Source: Nostoc punctiforme PCC 73102
GTDB lineage: Bacteria > Cyanobacteriota > Cyanobacteriia > Cyanobacteriales > Nostocaceae
Direction: 5' to 3'
Length of the DNA: 32,000 nucleotides
Assembly: GCF_000020025.1 (NCBI RefSeq)
Contig: NC_010628.1
Location: 2,640,001 to 2,672,000, forward strand
A program made the position numbers and the translations under genes. Numbering within the stretch: the first letter of the stretch is position 1; the number at the start of each line of letters is the position of its first letter. Shown here piece by piece: positions 358 to 25,680 of this stretch. Under the pieces are notes generated by a model. It ran no database searches, was not told the origin of the DNA, and saw only the letters and a program-made list of their open reading frames with translations.

Positions 358-377
358 CCCTCATCTTGTAAATTGCT

Positions 378-1403: not shown

Positions 1404-1432
1404 TTTAACTTGATGCTGCCAAGGAGTTTTCT

Positions 1433-2683: not shown

Positions 2684-2721
2684 AATTGTCACAAACCCCA
2701 TAGAAACTGAGAGTTGTTTTC

Positions 2722-4956: not shown

Positions 4957-5186
4957 ACTCAATCAGCGCAGTAAACGATTTGTCACTGGAACGATAACTT
5001 GGCAGAAAAGGACATCTTTTGCTGACAATCAACTATCGGACAAATCATGGTTACAAGAAAACAATTTTTAAAATCAAAAAATTAATTTCTGCAAGATGGT
5101 TTTGTCCATCTCTAGTTTTTTGGAGAGCGATTTTTGGCGTTGCATAATAAAGGGATGAATTGAGGTATTATACTGTGTAGTCTTAA

Positions 5187-5552
5187 TACTGGAAGTCTAC
5201 TGAGATTAGAAAAAATGGAAAGCGAAGAGGTAAGCAGAATCACATTTGTGTCAAGTTTGGTCGTCAATTTATCGATGTTTACAGCCCGGCAAAAGGGTAC
5301 TCAGATCGGGTAAAACAAAATTGCTTAAAAGCAGATGTAAATGGTGTGGGATTTCGAGCAATTGAACGTGATAAAGGTGTTCAGACGTTCGCGGACTCGC
5401 TCTAAGCGTAAAGCCTACGGCATAGCTTCGCTTAGGGCGCAGCCTCTCGTAGAGAAGGCTTTACGCTTTGCTATCACACAAGTGTCATTTCTTGGGTCAA
5501 ACAAGTTGCTGAAAAAATACCCAATGTACCAACTAAGGGTATTGAGCATTAA
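5187..5552 (+). pseudogene. IS1-family transposase N-terminal (InsA-like zinc-finger/HTH) remnant
   Basis: Frame 3 reads YWKSTEIRKNGKRRGKQNHICVKFGRQFIDVYSPAKGYSDRVKQNCLKADVNGVGFRAIERDKGVQ (5187-5384). After a 90-nt insert it continues HTSVISWVKQVAEKIPNVPTKGIEH-stop (5475-5552). This is the KNG..GKQ..C..CGRQF plus NGxGFRAIER..GV.HT.V..WVKQ layout I recognise from IS1-family N-termini. There is no start codon, an in-frame TAA at 5403-5405, and no DDE catalytic part before the devC 3' end at 5584. Confidence 0.55.
5385..5474. repeat. 90-nt hairpin-forming small repeat inserted inside the IS1 remnant
   Basis: Perfect 13-bp inverted repeat AAGCGTAAAGCCT (5404-5416) / AGGCTTTACGCTT (5456-5468) with a 39-nt loop. 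A competing inner pair is CTAAGCG (5402-5408) / CGCTTAG (5431-5437). The loop contains GCGCAGCCTCTCGTAGAGAAGG. The insert length is exactly 30 codons between the ...GVQ and HTSV... parts of the transposase frame. Confidence 0.7.
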
Positions 5553-5583
5553 ATGCGATTAGTGAATCAATGCTATGGACTGA

Positions 5584-6741
5584 TTAAAAAATATCGGATG
5601 GATCGGCAGTTTGGAGTTTGCGAATCGAGAATGCTGCTGAAACGCAACACATTGTTGCTGTCAAAGCCAACACAAAAGCAGCACGTCCGATGGTCATTGC
5701 CATTGGCAATAATGTAGCTTGACGAGTTATTTGATAAAAACCAAGAGAAAGCATCAAACCAGGAAAAAATCCCATTGCTGCCAGGATTAATGCTTCTTGA
5801 AAGACTACAGAAAGCAGATAATTATTCTCAAAGCCGATCGCTTTGAGGGTAGCATACTCTGATAAATGGTCAGACACATCGCTGTAGAGAATCTGGTAGA
5901 CAATCACCGCACCGACGATAAAACCAATCACAGCACCCAGGTCGAAAACATAGCCCACAGGTGTACTCGTATTCCAAAAACCCTGCTCCCGTTCGATGAA
6001 CTCCTGCTTCGACAGCACTCGTACATCGTCTGGTAGTCCTGCTTTCAAATTTTTCATCACCTGGGCTAAATTAGCTCCTGGTTCTAATTGAATCACACCT
6101 AACTCAATCAGACCTTTTTCTCGCCGCCGACCAAATAGACGTAGGAAGTTGAGATCGCTAGTAATCAAATGACCGTTAACTCCAAAGGATGTACCTAGCT
6201 CAAATAAGCCAACTACTTCTACTTCACGATTTTCGATCTCAGTTTTGAAGGGCCCAGTTTGTTGGAATATTTGAGGAATTGGCCCGAATTCTTTCCGCGC
6301 CCCTTTATCAAACATGACAGTATCAGGGAATTTCAGCTTGTCTAAATTGGCCTCTACAGGAGGTAGCATCATCACATTGTCATCTGGGTTAAAGCCAATG
6401 ACAAACATATTCCAAATCTGCTTATTGACTGGATTTTTCCACTGAACGTAGTCCAAATAAATAGGAATAACTGCTCGCACACCCGTGTAGCCAAGTGCCT
6501 GATATAAACGCCGTTCTGTAAATTTATCTCTGGAAATTAACGATCTGTAGCGATCGCTAATTAAAAAAACATCACCTTTTAAACTAGTTTGAATCTCTAC
6601 CGCACCTTCAAATAAAGCACTGCGAAATCCTAACTGTAAAAACATGAGGACATCGGCGAAGGTAATGCCAGCGATCGCCACCAGCATCCTAGCTTTCTCT
6701 CTCGATAATTGCAGCCAAGCTAAAGGAATTCGTCGTCTCAT
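5584..6741 (-). CDS. devC: DevC-family ABC exporter permease (FtsX/MacB-type)
   Basis: 385 aa. The N-terminus MRRRIPLAWLQLSREKARMLVAIAGITFADVLMFLQLGF, a large extracytoplasmic loop and a C-terminal three-helix FtsX-like bundle match the DevC-family pattern. The ATG overlaps the devB stop (ATGA, 6738-6741). Confidence 0.85.
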   Translation of the reverse strand: MRRRIPLAWLQLSREKARMLVAIAGITFADVLMFLQLGFRSALFEGAVEIQTSLKGDVFLISDRYRSLISRDKFTERRLYQALGYTGVRAVIPIYLDYVQWKNPVNKQIWNMFVIGFNPDDNVMMLPPVEANLDKLKFPDTVMFDKGARKEFGPIPQIFQQTGPFKTEIENREVEVVGLFELGTSFGVNGHLITSDLNFLRLFGRRREKGLIELGVIQLEPGANLAQVMKNLKAGLPDDVRVLSKQEFIEREQGFWNTSTPVGYVFDLGAVIGFIVGAVIVYQILYSDVSDHLSEYATLKAIGFENNYLLSVVFQEALILAAMGFFPGLMLSLGFYQITRQATLLPMAMTIGRAAFVLALTATMCCVSAAFSIRKLQTADPSDIF

Positions 6742-7928
6742 AGAAAGATAGCTACCTTGACCTTCATATTCGTAAACCCAGCTACCTTCTGACTATCTGT
6801 TGGAGTTAAGCGAATTTTGACTTCAACAACTCGAGAATCAATATTGGCAGCCGGGTCGGTATTCAAAACATCTTTTTTGGCAACTTCCAATCCTACTTCG
6901 TCCACCACACCTCGTAATGTTTCAGTTAGAGAACCACCGCTGACATTAGTAATGGTGGCTTGCTGATCTTTGTGGACTTTTGGTAAATCGCTTTCGTAGA
7001 CTTCGGCGATCGCATACATTTGGTTGGTTTGTCCTAATGAGACAATACCTTTATTGCTATCAACAATCTCACCTTCCCATGTGTGGATCTTCAAAATCTG
7101 TCCCGGTCTAGATGCTCGCACGTAGGCGAGATCTAACTCTGCCTGAGCCTGTTTCACTATAGCCTTAGTGTTGTTAACCTCGGTTTGCGCTACTCGTATA
7201 TCTATAGGACGGACTTCAGCAATGCGATCGAGTGTAGCTTGAGCTTCTTTGACTTGTTGAGTCAATATTGCAGTAGTTTGGTAAAAATTGATTTTAGCTT
7301 CCTTCAGTTGTTGGACAACAGTCTCAAAAATTAAGCGTTTGCTATCACGCAACGAAGCAGAGACAGCACCATCTTGATAGAGCGACTCGTAACGTTGATA
7401 TTCGAGTTGGGCATTTTCAGCCTCTGCGTCTAGACGTGTAACAGTTGCTTTTTTCGCAGCAGTATCTTCACGTAGCTGCACTTCAAGTCTGGCAATCACT
7501 GCCTTTTGAGCCTGAATTTCTCCAATTTTGGCACCAGCTTTAACCCGATCTAATTGGGCTTGGGTAACTGCTACTCGTTGCATTGCTTGCTCTAAAGCAG
7601 CTTGGAGACGAGGGCGTGAATCCAAAATGGCGATTACCTGTTTGTTTTGTACCCAGTCGCCTTGCTTCACTAATAATCGATCGATTCGGCTACCCTGACT
7701 AGAAGCAGTTAGCTGAATAACTTCTCCTTTTGGTTCCAGTCGTCCTAAGGCTGTCACTGCTTTGACTGGGGGATCTGTAGCTAGGGGAACAGATGATGAT
7801 TCGAGATTAGGCTTTGAGTGTAAAATCTTAGAAATACTACTGAGGCTAGTAATGCTTGCTACTAGAGCGACAACTGCGATCGCTATATATGTCCACGTAA
7901 ATTTAGATGATTTTTCAAAAGCCTTCAT
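6738..7928 (-). CDS. devB: DevB-family membrane fusion protein (HlyD-type) of an ABC exporter
   Basis: 396 aa. N-terminal anchor WTYIAIAVVALVASITSLSSI. Barrel/lipoyl segments flank a long Ala/Gln/Glu-rich coiled coil (AVTQAQLDRVKAGAKIGEIQAQKAVIARLEVQL...). It overlaps devC by 4 nt, suggesting translational coupling. Confidence 0.85.
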   Translation of the reverse strand: MKAFEKSSKFTWTYIAIAVVALVASITSLSSISKILHSKPNLESSSVPLATDPPVKAVTALGRLEPKGEVIQLTASSQGSRIDRLLVKQGDWVQNKQVIAILDSRPRLQAALEQAMQRVAVTQAQLDRVKAGAKIGEIQAQKAVIARLEVQLREDTAAKKATVTRLDAEAENAQLEYQRYESLYQDGAVSASLRDSKRLIFETVVQQLKEAKINFYQTTAILTQQVKEAQATLDRIAEVRPIDIRVAQTEVNNTKAIVKQAQAELDLAYVRASRPGQILKIHTWEGEIVDSNKGIVSLGQTNQMYAIAEVYESDLPKVHKDQQATITNVSGGSLTETLRGVVDEVGLEVAKKDVLNTDPAANIDSRVVEVKIRLTPTDSQKVAGFTNMKVKVAIFL

Positions 7929-8281
7929 TATTACCTTTTAGAAGTGAGTTTATTCGCCTACGCTCACAAAAAAACAACATTCTAGCCTTATTAATCCGGC
8001 AATTTACCAATTACAGATTACATATAACCTTGAAACGCCCTTCTACAGAGCTTTTCAAGTAATTGAACTACACCATTTTCCATCTCAGTCGTAGTCTCAA
8101 TACCTGAAAACTGATGTAATACCAAATTGAATCATGATTGCAACAGATGGAACGCCCAAAAGCTTGTCCAGTAAATATTTTACAATCCGAAATCCAAAAT
8201 GGTATTAAAACAGGGATATAGCGTTTCCTAATTCTGACCGAAGCAACGGAAACGTCTCTGGCTTTGTTCCTGAATTCTGAA

Positions 8282-9337
8282 TTATGCCGTAGGCTGCGAT
8301 GTTTCTCGCCCAACCTCAGATAATATCTCTGAAAGCTTCACTTTCTGCCCAGAAGAAGGAACTATCAAAGTTTCCGAGTCAAAATGTATCCGAGGCGTTT
8401 TTATAATTAATGAAAGTACTGTTAAGTAAGGAAGTGAAACATATTCATTTCCAAAATTTTGGCGTAAAGCTTGACTAACTAGAGGCGCAAACTGGTGACT
8501 CATACTTGGAAAAAGATGATGCTCAACATGGTAGCCAAAATTAAGATGCAAAAAAGCTAATACTGGATTAATTGTGACAGTAATTGTATTGTGTAATGGA
8601 TGATTTACATCAGAGTTAGTCGGACGTAATAAGTGTTGTGTAAGAATGTATGACACATAAATAAAGTTTCCCAATAACATCGGCAAGACGATGATATAAA
8701 GACTTGCGCGATCGCCGATCGCGCTCCCAAGTAAAATCCAAAATAAAATCATCAAAATAGTTTCAATCTTGGCTCTCAATCGATTGAACCCAAATTTATC
8801 TGCTAAATCCGAATCTGTCTTATAAAACCAGAGTACATATTGTCCCTCAAGGGTGAATAAGCAAAAAAAGCCAATGTAGCTGAACCAGTTATGTGTACCC
8901 GGAGTAAACATAGCTCTCAACCTAGTTACGGGACTTTTGGAGAACTCTTCAATTGTTCCGACGAAATCAGGATCCCGTTCCACAAAATTAGTATATCCAT
9001 GATGGCACTGACAATGCCAAAATTTCCATGTTAATGGTGATATCAGAAATGGAATATATCCCAAATAGCCGAGAAAATATTGCCCAAAATTGGATTGAAA
9101 AATTGCCCCATGTAGTGCCTCATGTGCAATAAAACCCCATATTGTATATATTTGTCCAATGACAATAGATAACAACAAGTAAACATACCAAGGTAGAGAA
9201 TACTGGATAATAATCCAAGAACAAGCTATGACAATAGATATCAACAAAATAGCAGCGATACCCCTCATTGGCTGGGGCTGAAATACATCGCTTGGCAATG
9301 ATTCTCTAAGTTTATTTCTAATTGCGTGTAATTCCAT
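8282..9337 (-). CDS. Membrane-bound di-iron fatty-acid desaturase family protein (paralog 1)
   Basis: 351 aa with several hydrophobic helices. Three His boxes are present: HEALHG, HCQCHHGYTN and HVEHHLFP. It is roughly three-quarters identical by eye to the adjacent paralog. Confidence 0.85.
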   Translation of the reverse strand: MELHAIRNKLRESLPSDVFQPQPMRGIAAILLISIVIACSWIIIQYSLPWYVYLLLSIVIGQIYTIWGFIAHEALHGAIFQSNFGQYFLGYLGYIPFLISPLTWKFWHCQCHHGYTNFVERDPDFVGTIEEFSKSPVTRLRAMFTPGTHNWFSYIGFFCLFTLEGQYVLWFYKTDSDLADKFGFNRLRAKIETILMILFWILLGSAIGDRASLYIIVLPMLLGNFIYVSYILTQHLLRPTNSDVNHPLHNTITVTINPVLAFLHLNFGYHVEHHLFPSMSHQFAPLVSQALRQNFGNEYVSLPYLTVLSLIIKTPRIHFDSETLIVPSSGQKVKLSEILSEVGRETSQPTA

Positions 9338-9563
9338 ATTTGTACTTTATATTCAACCAAAAAGTTGTTAATTATTAACAGAAAAAATGCCGTACAACTG
9401 CTGTATATAACTTTTCTTAATCAAATGAGATACATTATAGTCCCTCTTTCCAGGAAGGGGGTTGAAAATAGGATTATTTATCTCACTCAACAGATAAAGC
9501 CAATTCACGAAAAATATGCTGAGTCTCACTTTTTGAATTTTGAATTTGAATTAGTATAACTCC

Positions 9564-10601
9564 TTACTTCTGTGTCATCCATACTATAATGTCTGAAATT
9601 TGCGTTTTCTCCCCAGAAGAAGGATTTATCAAAGTTTCCGAGTCAAAATATATCCGAGGAGTTTTAATAGCTGACAATAGGACTTTTAAGTAAGGAATTA
9701 AAACATATTCATCAGCAAAATGTTGGCGTAAAACTTGACTAACTAGGGGAGCAAATTTTGGACTCATACTGGGAAAAAGATGATGTTCTACATGGTAACC
9801 ACCATTAAGATGAATAAAATCGATTATCGGATGTGTTGTCACGCTGATTGTGTTTTGCAGTGGATTATTTACATCGGAGTTGGTAGGGCGTAAAAAGTGT
9901 TGTGTGACAATGTAGGTCACATGAGAGAAGTTTGCTATTGCCATCGGCATAATGATGATATAAAGACTTGCTTGAAAGCCAATCATCACACCAAGGAAAG
10001 ACCAAAATAAAATCATCAAAATAGTTTCAATCTTAGCTCTCAATCGATTGAATCCAAATTTACGTGCTAAATCTGAATCTTTCTCGTAAACCCAAAGCAC
10101 GTATTGTCCTTGAAGTGTCAAACCACAAAAAAAGCCAATGTAGCTCATCCAGTGTTGTATCCCTGGATTAAGCATGGCTCTCAAACGAGTTATAGGACTT
10201 TTGGAAAATGTCTCAATTGTCCCGACAAAATCGGGATCTCGTTCGGCAAAATTAGTATATCCATGATGACACTGACAATGCCAAAATTTCCATGTTAATG
10301 GTGATATCAAAAATGAAGTATATCCCAAATAACCAAGGAAATACTGACCAAAACTTGATTGAAAAATCGAACCGTGTAATGCCTCATGTCCGATCAAATC
10401 CCATATAAAATATATTTGACCAATAATAATTGATATCAGTAAGCATAGATACCAGGGTGGAGAATAATGGATAATCAACCAGGAAAAAACTATGACAACA
10501 GGTATCAAGAGAATGGCAACTATACCTCTCATTGGTTGAAGTTGGAAGACATCACTGCTTAAGGATTCTCGAACCTTATTTCTAATGAGATGTAATTCCA
10601 T
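9564..10601 (-). CDS. Membrane-bound di-iron fatty-acid desaturase family protein (paralog 2)
   Basis: 345 aa with the same three His boxes (HEALHG, HCQCHHGYTN, HVEHHLFP) and the same N-terminus MELH.IRNK.RESL.SDVFQ.QPMRGI as paralog 1. Confidence 0.85.
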   Translation of the reverse strand: MELHLIRNKVRESLSSDVFQLQPMRGIVAILLIPVVIVFSWLIIHYSPPWYLCLLISIIIGQIYFIWDLIGHEALHGSIFQSSFGQYFLGYLGYTSFLISPLTWKFWHCQCHHGYTNFAERDPDFVGTIETFSKSPITRLRAMLNPGIQHWMSYIGFFCGLTLQGQYVLWVYEKDSDLARKFGFNRLRAKIETILMILFWSFLGVMIGFQASLYIIIMPMAIANFSHVTYIVTQHFLRPTNSDVNNPLQNTISVTTHPIIDFIHLNGGYHVEHHLFPSMSPKFAPLVSQVLRQHFADEYVLIPYLKVLLSAIKTPRIYFDSETLINPSSGEKTQISDIIVWMTQK

Positions 10602-10669
10602 ATTGTGGCTCCTATGTAATTAACAATTTACTATCTTGAGTCTTGCTCTGACTTAATTAAATGCCTGAA

Positions 10670-12160
10670 TTACATATGGATAGATTGCCCAGCGTCGATA
10701 AGGAGAATACTGCCATTGATGCGTTTAACTTCTTCTCGCAGAAGATAGGAAACCATGTCAGCGACATCTTCGGGCATACAAAGTTTGTTACCGAGTGAAA
10801 TAGATTCCCAATAAGGAATTAGCTTCTCGCTATCAGGCCATTTATTGATTAGTTCACCGTACACGGGGCCAGAACTAATACAGTTAACTTGGATATTATA
10901 CGGCTCGAATTCCATAGCAAGATATCGCGTTAATGCCTCTACCGCAGCTTTAACAGTAGCCATACAGCCAAAATAAGGAATGTAACGATGAGCCGCATTT
11001 GTAGAAAGAGTAATAATTTTTCCACCTCCTTGCTTCTTCATCAATTTGGCAGCACGTAACGCTCCCTGGTGAAGTCCAATTACATTCGTGTGAAATGCTT
11101 TATCTAAATGTTCTACTTTAATCTCTTCTAAGGGAGCAAGCATTCCATTAGAAGCATTGCTAATAAAAAAGTCAAGCCTGCCAAATTCAGCCTCAATTTT
11201 GTCAAAAAGTTGATGAAGCTGTGTTTCATTAGCCACAGATCCCCAAATATGAATAGCCTTACCACCATTGGCTATAATCTCAGCCGCAGTTTCTTCTCCG
11301 CTAGCAGTGGAATGAAAAGAATTAACAATAACAGTCGCACCCAACTCTGCTAAATGCTGGGCAATAACTTTACCTAAACCTCTTCCAGATCCTGTGATTA
11401 AGGCAATTTTGTGAGCTAATGGTTTGTTACTTTCTTGATATAGCGATGATGTCAATGATTTTACCTGTTCATTACCATCAGATAAGGGTAATTGTGCAGT
11501 TTTTCTATTGCCATTAACTTCGGGTAAAGATAATTCAACTTTCACAGGAAAATCGTTGCTGACAATAAACTGGCTAATGGCAACAGCAACATCAGAGATA
11601 GTGCGTAGTTGTTGCTGAGGAATATTTAACTGAGTTAGCGGTGGTAATTTGTAGTGTTCTCTGAGAACAGAAAATACTTCTCCGAGTTTGACAGAATCAA
11701 TTCCTAAATCTTCTTCTAAAGAAGCCTGTGCTTCTAAAATTTCCAGTGGATAACGAGTAACTTCAGCAAAGACACGTTGCACGTTAGCCAATACAGATGT
11801 GAAATCGGAAGTAACAGGTGATGGGATTGGCTCTAACTGATGATTAGGAATTGATGATGGTTCAATCTTTTCAGGTACAACAAACTGGCTAATGGCAACA
11901 GCAACATCAGAGATAGTGCGTAGTTGTTGCTGAGGAATATTCAGCTGAGTTAGCGGTGGTAATTTGTAGTGTTCTCTGAGAACAGAAAATACTTCTCCGA
12001 GTTTGACAGAATCAATTCCTAAATCTTCTTCTAAAGAAGCCTGTGTTTCTAAAATTTCTAGTGGATAACGAGTAACTTCAGCAAAGACACGTTGCACGTT
12101 AGTCAATACAGATGTTAGCTCAGAGGTAGTAGCTGATGATGGAATATTTTGTAGAAACAC
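10670..12160 (-). CDS. Tandem ACP-ACP didomain fused to a FabL-like short-chain dehydrogenase (probable enoyl-ACP reductase)
   Basis: GTG start at 12160 with AGGAGA 7 nt upstream. There are two phosphopantetheine sites [10 protein letters not shown] (Ser51 nt 12008-12010; Ser156 nt 11693-11695). The SDR domain has the Rossmann motif [14 protein letters not shown]. The block [27 protein letters not shown] closely resembles the B. subtilis FabL segment [27 protein letters not shown] as I recall it. The ER-versus-KR assignment is less certain than the ACP-ACP-SDR architecture. Confidence 0.8.
   Translation of the reverse strand: [496 protein letters not shown]
11561..12115 (-). repeat. Near-identical tandem duplication (315-nt period) encoding the two ACP domains
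   Basis: The 240-nt blocks 11876-12115 and 11561-11800 differ at about 5 positions by eye. The 80-aa peptides differ at 3 residues (T/A, T/A, V/I). Confidence 0.9.
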
Positions 12161-12290
12161 GATAATTCTCCTATTAGTTGAAGGAATTTATTTATGGGGT
12201 GAGGTATTGAATTAACTGTCCAAGTTCCTCATTACTACAGATGCGGCTATATAGATAAAATTCACCGACCTGGGTTAAAAACCCTTAATT

Positions 12291-13193
12291 TTATTTGTGT
12301 AGTAGCGAATTATCTTCGCGTAATACTTTCAAAACATTCTCTAAGTGAGTATTCAATTCAAAAGCCACGATGCTCAAGATAAGATTTGCCATAATGCTAA
12401 ATGCAGCGTAGGGTGCAAATGTAGATTTGGCATAACTAAACTGAAGTTTTAAAATGTGCAATTGAGAATTAAATCCTATCTTTGGCAGATGTTTTGAGAC
12501 AGTAAATAAAGACGTATCAATCTTGATCTCTAAGTTAGCGAAATCGCAAATATTATTTATTGGCGATATACCTGTTTTCAGGTATGACTCTTTGAGCGTC
12601 CATAGAAGTGTATATAGCTGAGAAATGCTTAATTCATCTTTTATTTGCTGCTGCACCCATAATGTTTCCTGTTTCGAGAAATAAGATTCGTAAAAATTTG
12701 GGCAGTGAGAAATAGGCTCCTCCAAATCTAAGCCGACTGGCCCAGAAGAACTCAGACTGGCGATCGCCAAACCGCCAGCATGAGAAATAGAAAGATACAT
12801 TGCCGAAAGAATATTGCCTTGCCAAAATAATTGTGGCGCTCCTTTTAAGCTAGGGTTAGACGGCAATATTTCAATAGAGCGATACACAATTGGCAAAACT
12901 GTAGCAATATCATTGCATCCCAACTTTTGGATGGTTGGCGGCCAAACAGAGTTGGAGTTTGCCAAGTGAGTATTACTCAGATAGCGGCTGAATAATAATT
13001 TGCAGACAAGTCTGGCTGTAAACCACTCATAACGCCGCCTGGGATGCTTAAATTGATGAAAATAAGCCAGTTCTTTTGCAGATAAATAGTCTTTAGCATG
13101 GACAGCCAGCTCGCCACCGATATCAATGTGCATGGCAGCAATTGTAGGAAGGCATTGAGCGAATTCAGGTAAGTGAGTGGTTGATGGTGGCAT
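12291..13193 (-). CDS. Sfp/HetI-type 4'-phosphopantetheinyl transferase
   Basis: 300 aa. PPTase motifs ISHAGGLAIASLSSSGPVGLDLEE and WTLKESYLKTGI (W.xKE..xK) are present. The gene sits between the megasynthase and the ACP-ACP gene. Confidence 0.75.
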   Translation of the reverse strand: MPPSTTHLPEFAQCLPTIAAMHIDIGGELAVHAKDYLSAKELAYFHQFKHPRRRYEWFTARLVCKLLFSRYLSNTHLANSNSVWPPTIQKLGCNDIATVLPIVYRSIEILPSNPSLKGAPQLFWQGNILSAMYLSISHAGGLAIASLSSSGPVGLDLEEPISHCPNFYESYFSKQETLWVQQQIKDELSISQLYTLLWTLKESYLKTGISPINNICDFANLEIKIDTSLFTVSKHLPKIGFNSQLHILKLQFSYAKSTFAPYAAFSIMANLILSIVAFELNTHLENVLKVLREDNSLLHK

Positions 13194-13240
13194 GAGTGAG
13201 GTTTTTTACACAGGCATTATTTTGATTCCAGGTTTGATTT

Positions 13241-16200
13241 TTATAGCCGAGCCAGTTGTGTACTTTTTTGCAAACCGATCGCTTCTTCCATCAAAACCAA
13301 AACGCGATCGTTCGCATCCATCACTTGCAGCCAATCACAATAAAGGGTATCCCCAGTTTTTTGAGAGTTAGAACCAACAAGAAATAACTCTTGATGCAGT
13401 TGATTGAGTTTCCAATCATTCAAATCAGGTGTCAGAGTAATTTTTTTCCATCCTTGAGGTACAAAAACTGCTCTAGGATCGTTACTGTCCCCGCTACTGG
13501 TTGCTACTCGCAACATGGCATCAATTAAAATTGCGGGTGTACAAAAATCAGATGTTAAACGTAGTTGAGTTGTATTTTTTAATCGAAACTTAGCCCGTCT
13601 GCGATTAGATCCAATCACAATATTGTTAATACAATCAAACATACCTTTGAGCCTCACTGGAGAGTTAGGGTTCATATACGGCTCTTGAATCGTCTCTCCC
13701 TCAAACCCGTTCCAGGTTTCATAACGACCTACTATCGCTTGAGTATTTGCAGCTAGCCGTATATCCATTTCACAATGAACGCAATCTTTTTGTAGTAAAG
13801 TGCCGTTTTTGTGAATAAAATCTGATAGTAACTTCACGTGGATGACAGTTTCATGATTTTTTTCTGTAACAATAGTTGCCTGGGTTTTGAGTAATATTTC
13901 TTGCTCGTTGAAAAATTTAATAAATCTCGAAAATTTACTATTTTCAATGGCGATTAGTTGCAGATTGGGTCGCAGTGCTTGTGCAGCCTGTGCTGCTAAC
14001 TCTTGTTCAAATGTTGCTGGCATGGTCGGAACATCATTTACAAGATGGTCTAATAGATAGGGAGCAGTTTTAATGCTCACATACCACTGCCGTTCATCGC
14101 TAAATTTTTTAGTATTTGCAATATGTTCTCGGGGAGTAATTAAAATATTTTCCTCTGTTTTATTAGCTAGCTTGTTTTCAAGTTTTGCTAAACCTGGAGA
14201 TAGATTATTTTGTGCTGTAACTACATCAATTTGATAGTAATTTTTCTCACCCTCAGTTAATAGCACATTGATAGGTGCAGTAGCTTGTCCATTCAGCAGC
14301 AGAGAGAAAAGTTGTTGTCCTTCTTCAGCCTGGATTGCATGAAGTCCTCGTTCTTGAGACAGCACAGCATATTCCGAACCACGGGTCATACCAATACCTG
14401 CCCAACCCAGCCAAGCGATAGTTGACCAACTACCAGTGAGTAGAGAACTATCCATATAGGCTGCAAAGCGATTCATAAATTCATTAGCAGCCCCATAGTC
14501 TGGTTGACCATCGTTACCAATGTAGCTGAATGCAGAAGTCAATAAATGGAAGTGAACTTTATTATTTGGAGCATATTGATGGCAGGCATTGTACAGATTT
14601 TTCAAACCAGATAATTTTGTAGCAATAATCCGTTGAAATTCAGTAAATGTACGCTTGGGCAAGAGTTTAGATGTTTGAATGCCAGCTCCATGAACCACGA
14701 GGTCAATTCGTCCATAAGTTTTGACTACTTTTGCTACTACCTGATTTACAGCTTCCACATCAGTGATATTGACGTTGACATATTCAAATCGACCGGGCAA
14801 TGCTGACAGATGTTTGAGGGTATGGTGAAGTTCGCGGGCAGCTTGATAATACTCTATCTGGGCTTTGAGTGCTGGCATTTTTTGCGATCGCTCGCGGTGC
14901 AATTGTTCTTGATAAAATCGACTCTCATACTGGGCAAAGTCAGCTTCATCTAGTTCTAAAACCTCGGCGGGCACAGATTTGAGGTCAGTACGACCCAGTA
15001 ACACAACGGTGCAGCCAAAGCGTTGCAGTACTTCTTCCATCAAAACTGCTGTTACACCCCGTCCACCACCTGTAGTAATGACAACAGAATTCTGGTTGAG
15101 AACAGGAGTGTGGTCTTTGGTCACTTCCGCTAGAGACACCAGCTGGAAAATTTGGCGATCGCCATTCATGTAAGATACTTCTACTGGCTTACCTGGTTGA
15201 CTATTTAACTCTGTATCTAACTGTTGCCAAGCATCTTTAATACTTGCTGCACCAGTATTAATACTCTTGCAAATACATTTTGGTAGTTCTCGAGCAACTG
15301 ATTTGATAAAACCAGCTAGCAGACCAGTGTAGGGGCTAAGTTGTCCGGTTTTCCAGGCGTTCAGGCACAGTGTCGCTAGGGCACTATCTCCAGTTTGTAG
15401 CTGGGGGTAAGAGTGACGGACAACCGCAAACAGTAAGTTGAGCAAGGAATCTGAGTCATCTATTGAGATTAATTGCTCGTCGCTGATGGCATTGAGGTTT
15501 TTAATCGCCACAATCGTGTCGTAACGACTAAAATCTAGTTTTTGAACTGTAGCTTTGATGGCATCTTCAGATGTTAGATCGATTTGGATAGCATCTGCAA
15601 TCGCTTTGTTGGCTGGACAGGCAACTATATAGTTCAAATCCTTTAGCATCTGAGTTTGAGCTAATGCTGTCCACAACTCAGGCTGGTCTGTTAAGAAGAG
15701 AATTTGCCTTTTTTCTAGGGGACGCGGCACAGCGATTTTTTCTACAGTAGCCGGAAACAGAGAGGGTGTATAAAAATGGGTGGGCGTTTGATGTAAGGAC
15801 TGAGAATTAATATCCTGTGTCCCTATATATTTTTCGTTTGCAGTTTCTTGAGGAGCAGGGAAAGGCGAGAAAGTTATTTGTCCTTGGCTTGCGGATTTCC
15901 ACTCAACTGCAACTACCTCACGGCTTTGACTAACACGCTCTACAGCTCGTGCAATTTCCACCACTCCAGTAGCTCCATAGAAATCTATGGGAATATTTGA
16001 ACCCGCTACTTCAACGATAGATTCCTGAATTCCTGATGTATTGACATCCAAGGTAGATAAGATAGGGAATCCGTGGGACTGTGCAATTTCAATTGTGGTC
16101 AGTGCTAAGATACAGGCTGCTTCTCCTGTAGGCATGTCCTTACCTGAAGTATGTGCCCCATGACCAACATAGCCATTAATGCTGCCAGCTAAAATTAGGT

Positions 16201-19200
16201 CGCAGTCGTGACTCATCAGCATCAACTCTGCGATACGTAAGGTTTCTAGTAAGGAATCAATACCTGCATCGATGACTATGTTAGGCCCGTTGAAATTAAA
16301 CAGGTTGCACACTTGACCAGCAGTAATATTAGGCATTGAACCAATCAAGGTATATGGAGACGAGGGAGAATTAGCTTGCTGGATGGCAGTAAATAGCTTT
16401 TGGCAAAGACGCTCAAAATCAATATCTGATTGTGAGAAATGTCCAGGTTTGGACTGTAAAAGCCTCCGCAGCCGGTCTAGAAACAGACGCTCGTTGACGG
16501 TAATGCCTCGCCCAGTTTTTCCAGGCATCCCAATTACAACTCCAGTTCTACTTTGGAGAGCTAATGCTTTTTCTCCCAGACCTCGGAGTGCTTTTTCAGT
16601 TGCCATTACACTGAGGTACTGACTGGCATCCATACGATCTGTGACATCAGGTAATAGCCGTCGCTTGACTGGCAATTGCAGTGTCTCTCGGGCAAACTGC
16701 TTGACTTGAATATCTGGAACTGAATTTTCTTGCAGTCCGTTTAAGGATGGAAATAAAGTACCAATTCCTACTAACGCTAGCGGTCTACGTAGAGAATGAG
16801 TATTCGGTCTTTGAGAAAACTGCCGATGGTAACTAGGATCGTAAGCTTCAATAATTAAGTTGGCGTTAGTACCTCCAAAACCAAAGCCATTTACTGCTGC
16901 ACGGCGGGGTTGTCCGGCTATGTTATTCGGCCAAGGCAATGGTGTTGTCGGAATGGATAAACAAGAACCTTGAAGTTCAATATCTTTATTGGGTGATTTG
17001 TAGTTATACTGACGTGGAATAGTTTGGGCTTTTAAAGCTTGGCAAACTTTAATAATAGAAGCTGTTCCGGCTACCCAGCCAGTATGACCAATCAAAGCTT
17101 TGACACTACCCAAATAAATTGGCGGTAAATTTGCTTCTCGTTTGTCGAACACTTCAGACAGCGACTTAAACTCTGTACCATCGCCAACTGGTGTAGCGGT
17201 TGCATGGGCTTCAATGTACTGAATCGTATTCGGATTTATCTGGGCGTTCTCACAAGCTCGCTGACATGCTAATACTTGACCAACTTTAGTAGGTACATTC
17301 ACAGCAGCACTCTTACCATCACTTGATGTCCCAACACCCCGGATGATGCCGTGGATGCGATCTCCAGCAGCGATCGCATCAGGTAAGCGTTTGAGTGCTA
17401 GAATAGCTGCTCCTTCGCTGAAAACTACTCCATCTGCGGTAGCATCGAAGGGGCGGCTACCTGTGGCAGAAAGACCTTTGAACTGAGCAAATAGACAGTT
17501 CATCGCTACTCCCGGTGCGAATACACCCCCCGAAAGTACTAGGTCGCTTTCATGGTTTTGTAGTAGTTTGATGCCGATGTCAACGGTGTAAAGGGAAGAA
17601 GCACAGGCAGCATCTAAGAGTAAGGTTTTTACACCATCGCCTAAGAATTTCTGGACTACGCGCTTGTAACATAGGTCAGGTGCGAGAAATTCGTGTTCTC
17701 CACTTTTTCGTCCTAGCAAGGTTTGTAGGGAATTGCTAAAAGTGGTACGCAACTGCTCTGGTTCGTCTAGTTTCTCAACGAAATACTTTAAGCTTTCAGC
17801 AAACAGAGCTTCATCGTACTCTTTGATGCCGTCAGCTGTGGAGCCAAGGAGACAATGCACTTTTTTGGTAGCAGATACTTGCTGATGAATGGGATTGAGA
17901 CACTGAGCTAATGCTTTAGCAAGTAGTTGCTGACCTCTTGTTAAGTTGTTGAATTCTTCGAGACTGTACGGTATACCTTTTTCATATTCCACCTGATTGA
18001 TTCTGCCACTGAGTAAAGTGTAGGTTTTCTCAGGAATTACAGATCCATCAGACATAAAATCTGGTACTAAGGAAGGATCGATGAGGCCTAAATCAACAAT
18101 GCCGGTGACTCCATCTTGAATATTTCGCCAGTATGCTTGTGGACTATCAGCTCCAGGTAGCAAGCAACCCATAGAAACAATAGCAATGGGAACGTTAGTG
18201 CCATTCGTGTCTGAGTCAGATGATAATGCTGCCGAGCTAAAAGCCGTTACTTCTTCAGGCTCGATTTCCCATTTCCCATACTCAAAAGCTTCATCCACAA
18301 CGGGATGGAGTTTTTCATTATTTTCTGGTGTAGGCTGCGGATGAGATAGCTGCCCAGAATATGTCTGTACAATGTGTTGCAGTCCTTCAATTATATTGCG
18401 ATCGTCAGACATCACAGACTGGGCGATCGCTTCTGGTTCAGATGGCAAGTTCTTTTGCACTAACTTTGTCAAGACTCTGCTTGCACCGCACTCGATAAAC
18501 GAATGGACGCCTTGTTGCTGGAGTATTTTTACAGCTTGAGAGAAGTTAACAACTTGGATGAAATGTGCAGCTAGAGTTTGAGGAAAATCAGTATTTGCAG
18601 TGTAAAAAGCTTTATTTATTGGTGAATATACTGGGATTTTTGGCGCTTGGAACGAGAACTGCTGTAAACTTGAGCAAAAAGATGCAACAGCTGGAGCTAA
18701 CAAAGCTGAGTGGAAAGGATATCGGCTTTTGAGAAAAGTGCAAGAAATGCCCAGGGGAACTAGCTCAGATTCAACCTGCTGGAGTTCTGTATAAAGTCCA
18801 GACAAAACAATTTGCTGTGGATGGTTGATAACCGCTACTGTTAAAGCAGTTTTTTTGATGGCGCTAAAAAGTTCCGTCAACCGTTGGGCACCGCAGGCGA
18901 TCGCCATCATACCACCAATATTGCTGGCAAAATTACGTAAAACTTGTATCCGTTGGCATACAATTTCGACGCTTGTCTCAAAGTCAAAAACACCGCCAAT
19001 GGTCAAGGCGGTTAATTCTCCAAAGCTATGGCCGACCAAAATATCTGGGTGCAGTCCTTGCTCAATCAAAAGTTCGGCAATGATGATATTTGTCAATAAA
19101 ATGCCTATTTGATCGAGGTCTGGACATTGTTGCAGCAAAAACTGATGTTCGTCATTGGACTGAGCTTGGATCAATGTTAAAAAGGAATAACCCAAATAAC

Positions 19201-19933
19201 GTTGAGTTAATTCATCAGCCTTAGTAAAGAGTGACTTTTTAGCAGGATAGTTCTGATAGAGAGTTTGTAAAGTCTGGTAATCATAAGCTCCCTGACCGGG
19301 GAATGTGAAGACTATTTTATTTTGAGCTAAAGGATTTACTTTTGTAATATTGACTTTATCTAATGTTAAAAAATAAGTATCTACAATCTGCACTCCCGAA
19401 GGATCGTTAGCTAGATTTCGACTGGTTATGAGTTTACCTAATTCACAAACTTCTGGTGTGAAAATCTTCTTAATTTCCTTTCCACCTGCTACTACTTTTT
19501 CTGCAAACGGCGGATCTAACAACCGCTCAATTAGACCGAAGTTTTGCAACACATAATCAACTAGTACAGGCGGAATAGGAATCAGTTCACCTGTGATTCT
19601 GGAAGTGAATACAAGCACCTGATATCCACAACAAACAGGTGTTCCGTCTTCACGAATTACCCGAAAACACAATCGAGTAGTAGACCTTGTTGGCTCATCA
19701 AAAGTTAGAAGAATAACTACACGCTCACCCAGTCCTACAGGTGCCATATTCCGGCTATATCCTTGCTGGGTTAGAATGACAACATCTTGAAAAGTTTCTT
19801 TATTAAACAGTCCGCCGAAAAAGAAGTGCTCCCGTGCGATACACTGAAATCGGAAGTTAGTCAGATAATGATGGGAACCATAGGCCATTGTGTCTTCAAA
19901 ATGAATCTGATACGGAACAGCTATGTAGCTCAT
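13241..19933 (-). CDS. Type I PKS / PUFA-synthase-like megasynthase: hotdog-AT-KS-CLF-KR-DH, no ACP in cis
   Basis: 2230-aa uninterrupted ORF. The ATG at 19933 is preceded by AAGGAG (complement of 19940-19945). Domain motifs are listed in the six sub-features that follow. Confidence 0.9.
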   Translation of the reverse strand: MSYIAVPYQIHFEDTMAYGSHHYLTNFRFQCIAREHFFFGGLFNKETFQDVVILTQQGYSRNMAPVGLGERVVILLTFDEPTRSTTRLCFRVIREDGTPVCCGYQVLVFTSRITGELIPIPPVLVDYVLQNFGLIERLLDPPFAEKVVAGGKEIKKIFTPEVCELGKLITSRNLANDPSGVQIVDTYFLTLDKVNITKVNPLAQNKIVFTFPGQGAYDYQTLQTLYQNYPAKKSLFTKADELTQRYLGYSFLTLIQAQSNDEHQFLLQQCPDLDQIGILLTNIIIAELLIEQGLHPDILVGHSFGELTALTIGGVFDFETSVEIVCQRIQVLRNFASNIGGMMAIACGAQRLTELFSAIKKTALTVAVINHPQQIVLSGLYTELQQVESELVPLGISCTFLKSRYPFHSALLAPAVASFCSSLQQFSFQAPKIPVYSPINKAFYTANTDFPQTLAAHFIQVVNFSQAVKILQQQGVHSFIECGASRVLTKLVQKNLPSEPEAIAQSVMSDDRNIIEGLQHIVQTYSGQLSHPQPTPENNEKLHPVVDEAFEYGKWEIEPEEVTAFSSAALSSDSDTNGTNVPIAIVSMGCLLPGADSPQAYWRNIQDGVTGIVDLGLIDPSLVPDFMSDGSVIPEKTYTLLSGRINQVEYEKGIPYSLEEFNNLTRGQQLLAKALAQCLNPIHQQVSATKKVHCLLGSTADGIKEYDEALFAESLKYFVEKLDEPEQLRTTFSNSLQTLLGRKSGEHEFLAPDLCYKRVVQKFLGDGVKTLLLDAACASSLYTVDIGIKLLQNHESDLVLSGGVFAPGVAMNCLFAQFKGLSATGSRPFDATADGVVFSEGAAILALKRLPDAIAAGDRIHGIIRGVGTSSDGKSAAVNVPTKVGQVLACQRACENAQINPNTIQYIEAHATATPVGDGTEFKSLSEVFDKREANLPPIYLGSVKALIGHTGWVAGTASIIKVCQALKAQTIPRQYNYKSPNKDIELQGSCLSIPTTPLPWPNNIAGQPRRAAVNGFGFGGTNANLIIEAYDPSYHRQFSQRPNTHSLRRPLALVGIGTLFPSLNGLQENSVPDIQVKQFARETLQLPVKRRLLPDVTDRMDASQYLSVMATEKALRGLGEKALALQSRTGVVIGMPGKTGRGITVNERLFLDRLRRLLQSKPGHFSQSDIDFERLCQKLFTAIQQANSPSSPYTLIGSMPNITAGQVCNLFNFNGPNIVIDAGIDSLLETLRIAELMLMSHDCDLILAGSINGYVGHGAHTSGKDMPTGEAACILALTTIEIAQSHGFPILSTLDVNTSGIQESIVEVAGSNIPIDFYGATGVVEIARAVERVSQSREVVAVEWKSASQGQITFSPFPAPQETANEKYIGTQDINSQSLHQTPTHFYTPSLFPATVEKIAVPRPLEKRQILFLTDQPELWTALAQTQMLKDLNYIVACPANKAIADAIQIDLTSEDAIKATVQKLDFSRYDTIVAIKNLNAISDEQLISIDDSDSLLNLLFAVVRHSYPQLQTGDSALATLCLNAWKTGQLSPYTGLLAGFIKSVARELPKCICKSINTGAASIKDAWQQLDTELNSQPGKPVEVSYMNGDRQIFQLVSLAEVTKDHTPVLNQNSVVITTGGGRGVTAVLMEEVLQRFGCTVVLLGRTDLKSVPAEVLELDEADFAQYESRFYQEQLHRERSQKMPALKAQIEYYQAARELHHTLKHLSALPGRFEYVNVNITDVEAVNQVVAKVVKTYGRIDLVVHGAGIQTSKLLPKRTFTEFQRIIATKLSGLKNLYNACHQYAPNNKVHFHLLTSAFSYIGNDGQPDYGAANEFMNRFAAYMDSSLLTGSWSTIAWLGWAGIGMTRGSEYAVLSQERGLHAIQAEEGQQLFSLLLNGQATAPINVLLTEGEKNYYQIDVVTAQNNLSPGLAKLENKLANKTEENILITPREHIANTKKFSDERQWYVSIKTAPYLLDHLVNDVPTMPATFEQELAAQAAQALRPNLQLIAIENSKFSRFIKFFNEQEILLKTQATIVTEKNHETVIHVKLLSDFIHKNGTLLQKDCVHCEMDIRLAANTQAIVGRYETWNGFEGETIQEPYMNPNSPVRLKGMFDCINNIVIGSNRRRAKFRLKNTTQLRLTSDFCTPAILIDAMLRVATSSGDSNDPRAVFVPQGWKKITLTPDLNDWKLNQLHQELFLVGSNSQKTGDTLYCDWLQVMDANDRVLVLMEEAIGLQKSTQLARL
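13259..14101 (-). other. PKS-type dehydratase (DH) domain
   Basis: aa ~1945-2225. The motif LLDHLVNDVPTMPATF follows HxxxGxxxxP with Asp at the Gly position. The distal motif is PAILIDAMLRV. Confidence 0.65.
14264..15091 (-). other. Ketoreductase (KR) catalytic subdomain
   Basis: aa ~1615-1890. Motifs are VVITTGGGRGVTAVL (NADPH site), GRIDLVVHGAGI and SAFSYIGNDGQPDYGAANEFMN (Ser...Tyr-x3-Asn). A probable structural KR subdomain precedes it at aa ~1410-1600. Confidence 0.8.
15899..16786 (-). other. KS-like chain-length-factor (CLF) type domain lacking the active-site Cys
   Basis: aa ~1050-1345. It has a KS-like fold start LALVGIGTLFP. The position aligned with DAACASS reads IDAGIDSLL, with Ile in place of Cys. 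Confidence 0.7.
16844..18190 (-). other. Ketosynthase (KS) domain with an intact Cys-His-His triad
   Basis: aa ~582-1030. Motifs are IAIVSMGCLLPGA, DAACASSLY (Cys777 = complement of ACA at 17603-17605), EAHATATPVGD, GHTGWVAGTAS and NGFGFGGTNANLIIE. Confidence 0.9.
18434..19321 (-). other. Acyltransferase (AT) domain
   Basis: aa ~205-500. Motifs are FTFPGQGAY, the active-site GHSFGE (Ser302, nt 19028-19030) and YPFHSALL. Confidence 0.85.
19529..19933 (-). other. N-terminal 4HBT/YbgC-like hotdog-fold domain of the megasynthase
   Basis: aa 1-135. IHFEDTMAYGSHHYLTNFRFQCIAREHFF resembles the YbgC/4HBT lead motif (V.YEDTD..G.V.H..Y). The second Asp of EDTD is Met here. Confidence 0.6.
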
Positions 19934-20693: not shown

Positions 20694-21056
20694 ATGGCAT
20701 GTGGAAAAGGTTATTTTGATGGTTTCCCAAGCCCTTTATCTTAACCTCTCACCGATGCAACTGTTGTCATGGATAATTTCAGTTCTCACAAAGTCACAGG
20801 TATAAAGGAAGCCATTGAAGCCGTTGGGATAAGACTGGTGTACTTATCTCCTTATTCTCCTGATTTTTCACCGATTGAAAACTGTTGGTCAAAGGTGAAA
20901 GAGTTTTTGCGTAGGCGTAACCCGCCGCAGGCATCGCTTGCTGCTAGAACATATCTTGAGTTAGACGAGGCCATTACAAATGCTCTGAATGCAGTAACTA
21001 AAAAAGACATTATTGGATGGTTTACCCACTGCTGTTACTGTATTGCACCCAACTGA
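20694..21056 (+). pseudogene. IS630-family transposase C-terminal fragment
   Basis: Frame 3 reads MACGKGYFDGFPSPLS-stop-PLTDATVVMDNFSSHKVTGIKEAIEAVGIRLVYLSPYSPDFSPIENCWSKVKEFLR...ARTYLELDEAITNALNAVTKKDIIGWFTHCCY. This is the VVMDN..HK ... YL(P/S)PYSPD..PIE..WSK.K DDE tail typical of IS630. The N-terminal two-thirds are missing, there is an in-frame TAA at 20742, and frames break further upstream. Confidence 0.7.
20909..20941. repeat. GC-rich short dispersed repeat, copy A (inside the IS630 remnant)
   Basis: TGCGTAGGCGTAACCCGCCGCAGGCATCGCTTG. It translates in frame as the extra peptide RRNPPQASLAA, between FLR and RTYLELD. Confidence 0.75.
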
Positions 21057-24503: not shown

Positions 24504-25680
24504 AGTCAAGTCAATTCCCATAAATAGGGATACTTGTACTTTTATAACCAATACTATATTTAAACACAAAAATATTCTGATATAATTTCACTATTATACT
24601 CATTATTTTTACTGCAAGTTAAGTTTGAATTGTCTCGTCTTTACTTGAATTCTCTCATGGCGATCGCCCTGTTTCACCACTCTCAGGGAATAGTTTGTTT
24701 CTAACTCTTATGCTATCTGCCGAGCTTTCTATTTATTCCACTTACTTCTTTTTCATTGGGCTGTTGAATTGAAATTTGATAAATCTAGGTTGAGATTTTT
24801 AGCGATGGCGTAACCGCCCAGCATAGCTGCTCGCAACATATAATTCCTCACTCAACTTGTCTTGGTTAGTAAATAACCTGAGTTCGGGATAAATAGATGG
24901 ACATAAATAAAGTGAAGACAGGGCAGGTGAGATACCTATGCCACAAGAGGCTAATTGTTTTATGTAAGATGGGCATTATACCTGCCATAGCCAGTAAAAG
25001 GGTATTTTATATTTAATTAAGTCCATCTACTTATTGGCAATGCAAACAAGACTGCAAGTCAACATAGTTCATAATTTTTCACAGCAGACGTGTAGTAGAA
25101 AATAACAGCTAAATTATTCTATAAAAAAAGCAAATTTTTTGAGAAAAATTATATATTTTTAGATAACTAAAAAGCAATCACTCAAGAGATAGTGCCAAAC
25201 TTAATCACTATATTATTTACAGACTTATCTTCTCTTAGCTAAAAATAAAAATCAAGGAAAGTTAAGACATTTAAGTAAATTATTGAAATAGTTAAGACAG
25301 GAATACTGATCGGTTAAGGGAAAAAGTAGGCTCAAACCCTTGATATATCCTTGTCTATAATTCCCAAAGAGCTTAAACGAGCAGTATTAATTAAGCCAGT
25401 TAATAAAAAAATAAGTAAGTTGCGTTTTGAACTAAAAAATTATTAAAGTAATGACGCAACCATTATAAATCAAGAAAACGCGATTATTACGTAGTAATAA
25501 AAAGCCTGAATTTACTCAAATTTATAACTGGTCTTAAAATTTCCTTTTTGACATTTTGCTTTAGTAACTATTACACTTTTTAATCCATGAAGTGTTTTTA
25601 AAATTGAATCTATCGACCACAGGCTCATCGCTATCACCAGACAAACTAAGCACACCAAAGCTTGAGGTCTCCCAATAAAT

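Follow-up and report, generated by a model that had tools for sequence, protein, structure and literature searches.

A candidate secondary lipid synthase locus of Nostoc punctiforme PCC 73102 with a thioesterase-first synthase and a separate carrier-reductase protein

To which kind of system do seven clustered genes of Nostoc punctiforme PCC 73102 belong, and is their arrangement peculiar to them? The genes lie at positions 5584-19933 of a stretch of 32,000 nucleotides (NC_010628.1, 2,640,001 to 2,672,000; called the window below, with positions counted from its first letter). An earlier note, made from the sequence alone, had described them as a split polyunsaturated fatty acid (PUFA) synthase-like or Hgl-like lipid cluster with an arrangement that it did not recognise. 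The list of open reading frames (ORFs) of the window contains exactly seven minus-strand ORFs in this region, with the gaps (47, 130, 68, 226, and 353 nt) and the single 4-nt overlap that had been given before. In the direction of transcription they encode a megasynthase, a phosphopantetheinyl transferase (PPTase), a protein of two acyl carrier protein (ACP) domains fused to a short-chain dehydrogenase/reductase (SDR), two membrane desaturases, and the exporter components DevB and DevC; the five biosynthetic genes span 11.7 kb (8282-19933). Based on domain searches, alignments, and a survey of related loci, we consider it probable that the locus represents, in complete and intact form, the cyanobacterial type of an uncharacterised 'secondary lipid' synthase family akin to PUFA synthases; a long acyl chain would thereby be made, desaturated, released, and exported.

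Domain architecture of the synthase and its partner proteins

The megasynthase gene (13241-19933, minus strand, as all seven) encodes a protein of 2230 aa, which is full length compared to its homologues in other Nostoc strains (2228-2244 aa). Hidden Markov models (HMMs), profile searches against the PDB, and a family alignment of 16 members gave the domain order hotdog thioesterase-acyltransferase (AT)-ketosynthase (KS)-chain-length factor (CLF)-ketoreductase (KR)-dehydratase (DH). No match to the Pfam PP-binding model was obtained within the 2230 aa, indicating that there is no ACP in cis. The AT (residues 208-505; 18419-19312) was matched by Pfam Acyl_transf_1 with 75.5 bits and by TIGR00128 FabD with 164.8 bits; it carries the motif GHSFGE, and in the alignment GHSxGE and R328 are invariant and PFHS is kept. 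The KS (residues 582-1038; 16820-18190) was matched by both the N- and C-terminal ketoacyl-synt models of Pfam, and its triad C777/H910/H950 is invariant in all 16 members. The best NCBIfam matches of this domain were PKS_plus_SDR (232 bits) and PfaA (225 bits). A second, CLF-like KS homologue follows at residues ~1046-1365 (15839-16798) and reached 43.5 bits with ketoacyl-synt, above the cut-off, when scanned alone. In its motif IDAGIDSLL an Ile occupies the Cys column, and this column varies freely across the family, which fits a chain-length factor.

Downstream of a KR structural subdomain, the catalytic subdomain of the KR was located at residues 1618-1844 (14402-15082; Pfam KR, 73.3 bits), with K1773, S1800, Y1813, and N1817 invariant in the family. 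The DH (residues ~1930-2230; 13244-14146) is of the polyketide synthase (PKS)/PfaA type; scanned alone, it reached 27.7 bits with PKS_DH_N at a cut-off of 27, and H1963 and D2138 are invariant in the family. The top match of the KR-DH region was to positions 1914-2360 of PfaA with 120.9 bits, compared to 62 bits for the next model, and in the PDB the CLF family profile was matched best by 6riw_A, a KS-CLF didomain, in its second half (the CLF). Together, these two matches indicate that the kinship to PUFA synthases is real. The Pfam and NCBIfam models thereby bear out what the earlier note had assigned by hand, namely the domain order without an ACP in cis, the GHSFGE motif of the AT, the intact Cys-His-His triad of the KS, the CLF with Ile at the Cys position, the KR and the PKS-type DH, and the kinship to PUFA and secondary lipid synthases.

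The N-terminal domain (residues 1-160; 19454-19933), previously named only as a hotdog fold, could be described more precisely. In profile searches against the PDB it matched SSO2295, a 4HBT thioesterase of Sulfolobus (1.7e-6), CalE7 (1.5e-5), and SgcE10 (6e-4). An AlphaFold2 model of the domain had a pLDDT of 85.6, and the top Foldseek matches of this model were the thioesterases YbgC, PA5185, Slr0204, CalE7, SgcE10, and EspE7; R34 is aligned with the RE of CalE7. As judged from the model and these matches, the domain is a thioesterase of the 4HBT class and of the CalE7/YbgC type and not a dehydratase, with a likeness to CalE7 and SgcE10 that is not greater than that to YbgC-type thioesterases. 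A profile search of 1.84 billion representative proteins yielded 132 sequences at E<=1e-10, and generic thioesterases were reached only from about 1e-6. Among the matches listed, the domain mostly forms the N-terminus of synthases of ~2000-2300 aa or a stand-alone protein of ~200 aa, and many of the remaining ones are shorter, probably contig-truncated fragments. This sharply bounded subfamily, tied to synthases, points to a domain dedicated to release in synthases of this type. Thus, the synthase would have release built in, and a link to enediyne PKS systems is provided.

The second gene (12291-13193) encodes an Sfp/HetI-type PPTase of 300 aa (Pfam ACPS, 41.9 bits; weak HetI match). The third gene (10670-12160; GTG start) encodes the 496-aa ACP-ACP-SDR protein, in which Pfam identified two PP-binding domains and adh_short_C2 (176.7 bits). 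The ACPs are encoded by two repeats at 11877-12138 and 11562-11823 (together 11562-12138) with LGIDS in each; by DNA repeat search they form a tandem repeat of 262 nt with 95% identity and a period of 315 nt. The SDR domain (residues 248-496; 10673-11419) has the cofactor motif TGSGRGLG and the spacing Y-x7-K with a Met at K-4, while the classical YxxxK is missing. Its best match in the PDB, over the whole length, was Bacillus subtilis FabL (3oic/3oid), which likewise has a TGxxRGxG cofactor motif and lacks the classical YxxxK; the score with 3oic was 159 bits versus 113 bits for the next structure. The motif LS(S/T)PAxHGYVDYFGCMGxVKAAVE is kept across phyla, and the window version of its part YVDYFGCMGxVKAAVE reads RYIPYFGCMATVKAAVE. 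A Met four residues before the Lys is a feature of SDRs of the FabI/enoyl-reductase class, and YxxxK is that of keto-reducing SDRs. Since FabL is the closest characterised relative, YxxxK is missing, and a Met is at K-4, we take the ACP2-SDR protein as the carrier and infer that it is also the enoyl reductase (ER) of the system; it is plausible, going by its sequence, that the SDR works like FabL.

The two desaturase genes follow at 9564-10601 (345 aa) and 8282-9337 (351 aa). The first product was matched by Pfam FA_desaturase with 92 bits and has the histidine boxes HEALH, HCQCHH, and HVEHH; the second is a paralogue with 75% identity and all three boxes aligned. The closest NCBIfam model for both is the delta-10 desaturase DesB of Bacillus (NF052549; 188-205 bits, with 188 bits for the first), with which they share the full length and the three-box layout. 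However, these scores are far below the equivalog cut-off of 500, and the two proteins form a small cluster-associated subfamily: matches with 49-93% identity are from Nostoc or unplaced contigs, and relatives outside the cluster lineage are at closest 33-41% identical. Outside the cyanobacterial loci, desaturases of this type adjoin the synthase only in Pyxidicoccus, a metagenome-assembled genome (MAG) of Kofleriaceae, and Methylomarinum. An 81-aa ORF in the gap between the second desaturase gene and devB (8068-8313) was rejected as spurious, having no Pfam match and a position that was not recovered in the other Nostoc loci.

The last two genes encode a membrane fusion protein of the DevB family (6738-7928, 396 aa; TIGR02971, 344 bits at a cut-off of 129) and the ABC-exporter permease DevC (5584-6741, 385 aa; TIGR01185, 522.6 bits at a cut-off of 290). 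The accessory genes are thus those named in the earlier note, i.e. a dedicated PPTase, a near-identical ACP pair in trans fused to a FabL-like reductase, two membrane desaturases, and DevB plus DevC, while the exporter as such is incomplete (see below).

Related loci in cyanobacteria and other phyla

Relatives were searched in one genome per species and checked by tblastn, which yielded 391 confirmed stretches. They occur under the MAG labels Acidobacteriota, Gemmatimonadetes, Thermoanaerobaculia, Planctomycetota (including Ca. Uabimicrobium), Rhodothermales, Kiritimatiellales, Deferribacteres, and Chloroflexi, as well as in Bacteroidota (Aquimarina), Myxococcota (Sorangium, Chondromyces, Minicystis, Pyxidicoccus), and the gammaproteobacteria Methylobacter, Methylomarinum, and Hydrocarboniphaga. 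The window synthase is 40-62% identical over its full length to members in other phyla. Gene neighbours were counted in 60 informative loci with enough downstream sequence. One or more ACPs adjoin the synthase in 55 of these, an SDR in 53, and a PPTase in 44, and ACPs and SDR are fused in 53 of the 60. The window has all features of the family: a synthase of ~2000-2300 aa that is ordered AT-KS-CLF-KR-DH and lacks an ACP in cis, a hotdog thioesterase (counted when fused N-terminally or encoded just upstream), an adjacent PPTase, and an ACP(1-3)-SDR protein. Thus, the arrangement that had seemed peculiar to this locus is a conserved signature across phyla, and the set of (thioesterase) AT-KS-CLF-KR-DH, PPTase, and ACPn-SDR is a widespread bacterial family. 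None of synthase, thioesterase, and carrier protein has an equivalog in NCBIfam, and full-text literature searches (AT-KS-CLF or KS-CLF-KR-DH order, FabL plus tandem ACP, PUFA-synthase-like plus enediyne plus thioesterase) found no paper describing the architecture. The antiSMASH class 'hglE-KS' is widely reported from soil phyla.

Within the family the parts are joined in different ways. Acidobacteria encode the thioesterase (~200 aa) by a gene of its own directly upstream of the synthase. One member (P0065) combines thioesterase-AT-KS-CLF-KR-DH-ACP-SDR in a single chain of 2706 aa, and Hydrocarboniphaga has a fused KR-DH-ACP3-SDR protein; these fusions indicate a functional link of the synthase with ACPn-SDR. 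Hydrocarboniphaga effusa AP103 carries two such split copies (...KS-CLF / KR-DH-ACP3-SDR; L071 and L072) ~200 kb apart on one contig, with identical gene coordinates and identical per-gene identity to the window proteins. Methylobacter tundripaludum (L002/L054, 17474-18340) has a carrier with three ACP motifs and no SDR, a natural 'ER-less' variant that is useful for comparison; in these loci an RND efflux system precedes the synthase.

The accessory genes differ between phyla. The operon of Acidobacteria (L014 6902-26553; also L007, L044, and others) is long and conserved and has the order DUF6312, DUF6200, ABC1 kinase, thioesterase, synthase, PPTase, and ACPn-SDR, followed by DUF1702, a halogenase-like flavoprotein, a di-haem cytochrome c peroxidase, and a desaturase of another kind. 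It is an uncharacterised pathway of its own. In Aquimarina and Ca. Uabimicrobium (L010 16588-24283; L035 2729-9971), the core is extended by an FG-GAP/UnbV_ASPIC protein and a ~500-aa protein of unknown kind, in the Aquimarina locus together with DUF1702. By analogy, this gene set is reminiscent of the enediyne accessory genes E3/E4/E5. DUF1702 proteins are annotated as enediyne biosynthesis proteins and occur beside genes of enediyne PKSs (PKSE) (PMC7692728).

Among cyanobacteria the family is rare. An exact-sequence look-up of the ACP-ACP-SDR protein had no match, but by way of the synthase a copy with 99% identity was found on an 8.33-Mb JGI contig (L001), and copies with ~92% identity in Nostoc sp. 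FACHB-892, NMS8, and S62. The remaining relatives comprise one with 61% identity in an uncultured cyanobacterium, unplaced metagenomic contigs with 62, 61, 54, and 47%, and those in other phyla with ~40%. Only four cyanobacterial species-representative genomes carry the cluster, and across Nostocales there is hardly any synteny, with carriers limited to some four Nostoc genomes plus one or two contigs of distant cyanobacterial or metagenomic origin. Three further Nostoc genomes have all seven genes in unchanged order between different flanks, with 82-98% amino-acid identity. Cyanobacterial carriers add desaturases and DevBC(A) to the core: the synthase is linked to DevB and DevC in the Nostoc group as well as in the cyanobacterium with 61% identity and the metagenomic relative with 54% identity, representing three separate cyanobacterial-type lineages, and the latter two additionally carry the ATPase DevA and a PadR or TetR regulator. 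Located 0.8 kb upstream of the synthase gene (20769-21056, plus strand) is a fragment, 95 aa long, of a DDE_3 (IS630-type) transposase, and in the genome with 99% identity the position that follows devC is occupied by an IS630 transposase (L001 24776-25722). Together with the differing flanks, this suggests that the seven genes form an island-like, horizontally moving unit.

Proposed pathway and alternative explanations

The catalytic inventory (AT, KS-CLF, KR, DH, a candidate ER, ACPs, PPTase, and thioesterase) amounts to a complete iterative cycle like that of a fatty acid synthase (FAS), including release. In the predicted order of steps, the PPTase would prime the two ACPs of the separate ACP-ACP-SDR protein, and the AT would load malonyl units onto them. 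The KS-CLF pair would then elongate the chain iteratively and fix its length, with the PfaA-like KR and DH processing each beta-carbon and the FabL-like SDR reducing the enoyl group in all or part of the cycles, which would give a long, largely saturated acyl-ACP. Domain scans covered window ORFs of at least 80 aa and a nonribosomal peptide synthetase (NRPS) ORF that runs off the window end. As claimed before, no match to FabA-type DH/isomerase domains or to the FabK/PfaD-type ER (PfaD/NMO) was obtained in these ORFs, and none to a glycosyltransferase. Without a FabA-type isomerase no cis double bonds would arise during elongation, which provides a role for the two O2-dependent desaturases; these would add unsaturation to a presumed acyl substrate made by the synthase. 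The N-terminal thioesterase would free the acid, and DevB and DevC would export the product across the envelope, together with an ATPase and a TolC-like outer-membrane channel encoded elsewhere.

Several observations weigh against this pathway. For no member of the family is a product or an activity known. In the DH of the window an Asp stands at the Gly of the family consensus HxxxGxxxxP. The SDR scored 220 bits with the NCBIfam FabL model PRK08063, below the equivalog cut-off of 328; it differs from FabL further in its fusion to two ACPs and in its Tyr, which is shifted by one residue (Y-x7-K instead of Y-x6-K) and replaced by His or Gly in some family members. Given this score and the shift or replacement of the Tyr, the ER function is not secure, so that of the 'fully reducing' synthase proposed in the earlier note AT, KS, KR, DH, and a candidate ER are present, and full reduction would depend on the latter. 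Export is not self-sufficient either, since devA is absent from the window: there is no ABC_tran ORF in it, and the 627 nt after devC (4957-5583) contain no ORF of at least 60 aa. In two distant relatives devA directly follows devC (L013 8863-9570; L077 4496-5212). Finally, the neighbours in other phyla (DUF1702, FG-GAP/UnbV, halogenase-like flavoprotein, di-haem peroxidase) are more in keeping with a polyene-type intermediate than with a saturated chain.

Such an intermediate is the basis of an alternative that we regard as rather unlikely, though deserving of attention. Here, a conjugated or partly reduced polyene would be built on the trans ACPs as by a PKSE, with the SDR acting at one step and release as by CalE7/SgcE10; with about the same low likelihood, the 'desaturases' would act on ACP-bound chains as desaturases or acetylenases, giving an exported polyunsaturated or acetylenic metabolite and not a structural lipid. 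The relationship of the thioesterase to CalE7, SgcE10, and EspE7 is in line with this polyene or polyyne route, as are the PKS-type DH with no FabA-type isomerase found, the atypical catalytic motif of the SDR, desaturases that are specific to the cluster and unrelated to the housekeeping ones of cyanobacteria, and the pairing of the core with DUF1702 and FG-GAP/UnbV_ASPIC proteins in related loci. However, UnbV_ASPIC/FG-GAP proteins are common outside enediyne clusters, and Pfam scans found no homologue of DUF1702, UnbV, or UnbU in the window; DUF1702 and UnbV-domain proteins occurred only in the relatives from other phyla. Furthermore, the SDR groups with the enoyl-ACP reductase FabL and not with other SDRs, almost every member has a FabL-like SDR, also where the neighbours are enediyne-like, and KS-CLF plus tandem ACPs is a hallmark of PUFA synthases but not of PKSE.

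The exporter genes raise the question whether the locus encodes a second, Hgl-like pathway for an envelope glycolipid of heterocysts or akinetes, with the aglycone made here, glycosylated by an enzyme encoded elsewhere, and deposited by DevBC. DevB and DevC are genuine members of their families, the locus belongs to a Nostoc, and DevBCA with HgdD is the known exporter of heterocyst glycolipids in Anabaena. Hgl systems include a reductase and a glycosyltransferase, whereas neither a thioester reductase nor a glycosyltransferase is present in the window, and the architecture, with no cis ACPs and no KS-CLF-AT protein, is unlike that of HglE/D/C. A hydrolytic thioesterase would free an acid instead of an alcohol or diol aglycone. 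In addition, no NtcA-type site (GTAN8TAC) was found upstream of the synthase gene or devB; the occurrence of such sites was at chance level, and one match, at 7849, falls within devB. The cluster is very rare among Nostocales, which places it outside the general heterocyst programme, and its core is common to non-heterocystous phyla. On balance, such a pathway is very improbable. Nearly as improbable is that a horizontally acquired cluster is decaying and no longer functional in this strain. The missing devA, the transposase fragment upstream, the IS630 element by devC in the 99% identical genome, and the differing flanks among Nostoc would agree with decay, but all seven ORFs are intact and of full length with invariant catalytic residues, and the seven genes keep a high amino-acid identity in three further Nostoc genomes, which indicates purifying selection.

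Thus, we favor the secondary lipid synthase pathway set out above. A compact core of three or four genes occurs from Acidobacteria and myxobacteria to Planctomycetes and Nostoc with no product assigned to it, and its carriers are fused to a reductase instead of to the synthase, an organisation that has not been described before. More tentatively, and with some doubt on our part, it is possible that these systems constitute a third branch of the PUFA-synthase/enediyne-PKS superfamily, in which a thioesterase-bearing AT-KS-CLF-KR-DH enzyme works on a free-standing ACPn-reductase carrier; in Nostoc, with the two dedicated desaturases or acetylenases and the DevBC exporter added, an unsaturated (polyene- or polyyne-like) lipid would be made and exported, belonging to a class so far undescribed for cyanobacteria. 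The Nostoc version is small and self-contained, and the genus has culturable, genetically tractable strains; it therefore offers a practical entry to the product of the whole family and would allow a test of an FabL-type SDR as the ER of a PUFA-synthase-like system. The locus overturns no established concept.

Flanking genes and comparison with known systems

On the other side of the transposase fragment, two genes for proteins with an AAA-like domain (AAA_35) are located at 21348-22763 and 23343-24569 (minus strand), between the lipid cluster and the NRPS gene; in the 99% identical genome the second is broken into two ORFs (L001 5360-5743, 5798-6589). A region of ~2.6 kb (24570-27204) follows that is AT-rich (GC ~0.33), with ORFs of 60-78 aa only and no tRNA gene or Rfam match. 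The NRPS gene starts at 27205 on the plus strand and runs off the window end (27205-32000), with condensation, adenylation, thiolation, and condensation domains (C-A-T-C) in its first 1598 aa; in the 99% identical genome the protein has 4371 aa. It is oriented divergently to the synthase gene at a distance of 7 kb. As a partner of the cluster it was rejected, because other Nostoc genomes have different flanks beside the same seven genes, and it probably belongs to a separate pathway. At the opposite end (1-4956, plus strand), a chemotaxis-like operon encodes a response regulator, a CheW-domain protein, a GAF-containing methyl-accepting chemotaxis protein, and a CheA-like kinase with a CheW domain. 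It is of the type usual in motility and phototaxis signalling loci of Nostocales and apparently unconnected to the lipid cluster. Across the window no tRNA genes or Rfam matches were found, and promoter and terminator scans did not exceed the shuffled expectation.

With the pfa systems (PfaA-E) the window shares an iterative type I FAS/PKS hybrid with a KS-CLF didomain, a PfaA-like KR-DH, tandem near-identical ACPs, and an Sfp-type PPTase. In contrast, PfaA has the order KS-malonyl-acyltransferase-ACP(4-6)-KR with the ACPs in cis, while those of the window are on a separate, SDR-fused protein. The AT of the window precedes the KS, and an N-terminal hotdog thioesterase is present. The scanned window ORFs contain neither the two FabA-type DH/isomerase domains of PfaC nor the flavin mononucleotide-dependent PfaD/FabK-type ER, and the place of the latter is taken by a FabL-like SDR.

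The locus resembles the hgl systems in that a PUFA-synthase-like system of a cyanobacterium is combined with a DevB/DevC exporter. It differs in that the 32-kb window holds no cis ACPs, no HglC-type KS-CLF-AT, no thioester reductase, and, as stated earlier, no glycosyltransferase; it has a thioesterase and two desaturases, and it occurs in a handful of cyanobacterial genomes. As a DevBCA-type exporter it is represented by DevB and DevC, both above their cut-offs, with the ATPase DevA not in the same operon. The cluster is not an orthologue of hgl or pfa. The kinship with KS-CLF plus tandem ACP synthases proposed in the earlier note stands.

An enediyne PKSE is organised as KS-AT-ACP-KR-DH-PPTase on one chain and has no CLF, tandem ACPs, or SDR. 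With the pairs CalE8/CalE7 and SgcE/SgcE10 the window shares iterative KS, AT, KR, and DH, a dedicated PPTase, and a hotdog thioesterase related to CalE7 and SgcE10, and in other phyla members of the family are additionally flanked by DUF1702 and UnbV-domain proteins. However, the window differs in its domain order, in having a CLF, and in encoding ACP and PPTase as proteins of their own.

Shulse & Allen (2011) distinguished 'secondary lipid synthase' types A-T (PMC3098273), and according to the same source hgl systems comprise an HglE-type KS-AT-ACPn and an HglC KS-CLF-AT. None of the types whose layout is given in the text of that paper matches the window; type R is the nearest but has cis ACPs and lacks DH and thioesterase. 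The secondary lipids listed as known in a 2026 survey are few, namely PUFAs, heterocyst glycolipid chains, phenolic lipids of Azotobacter, and zeamine-type chains (PMC13291983). Taken together, the cluster, as judged from its genes, is not an hgl, pfa, or enediyne PKSE cluster and appears to work like a PUFA-synthase-type secondary lipid synthase. Its enzymology is familiar; what is new is the combination of a thioesterase-first synthase with a carrier-reductase fusion that acts in trans.

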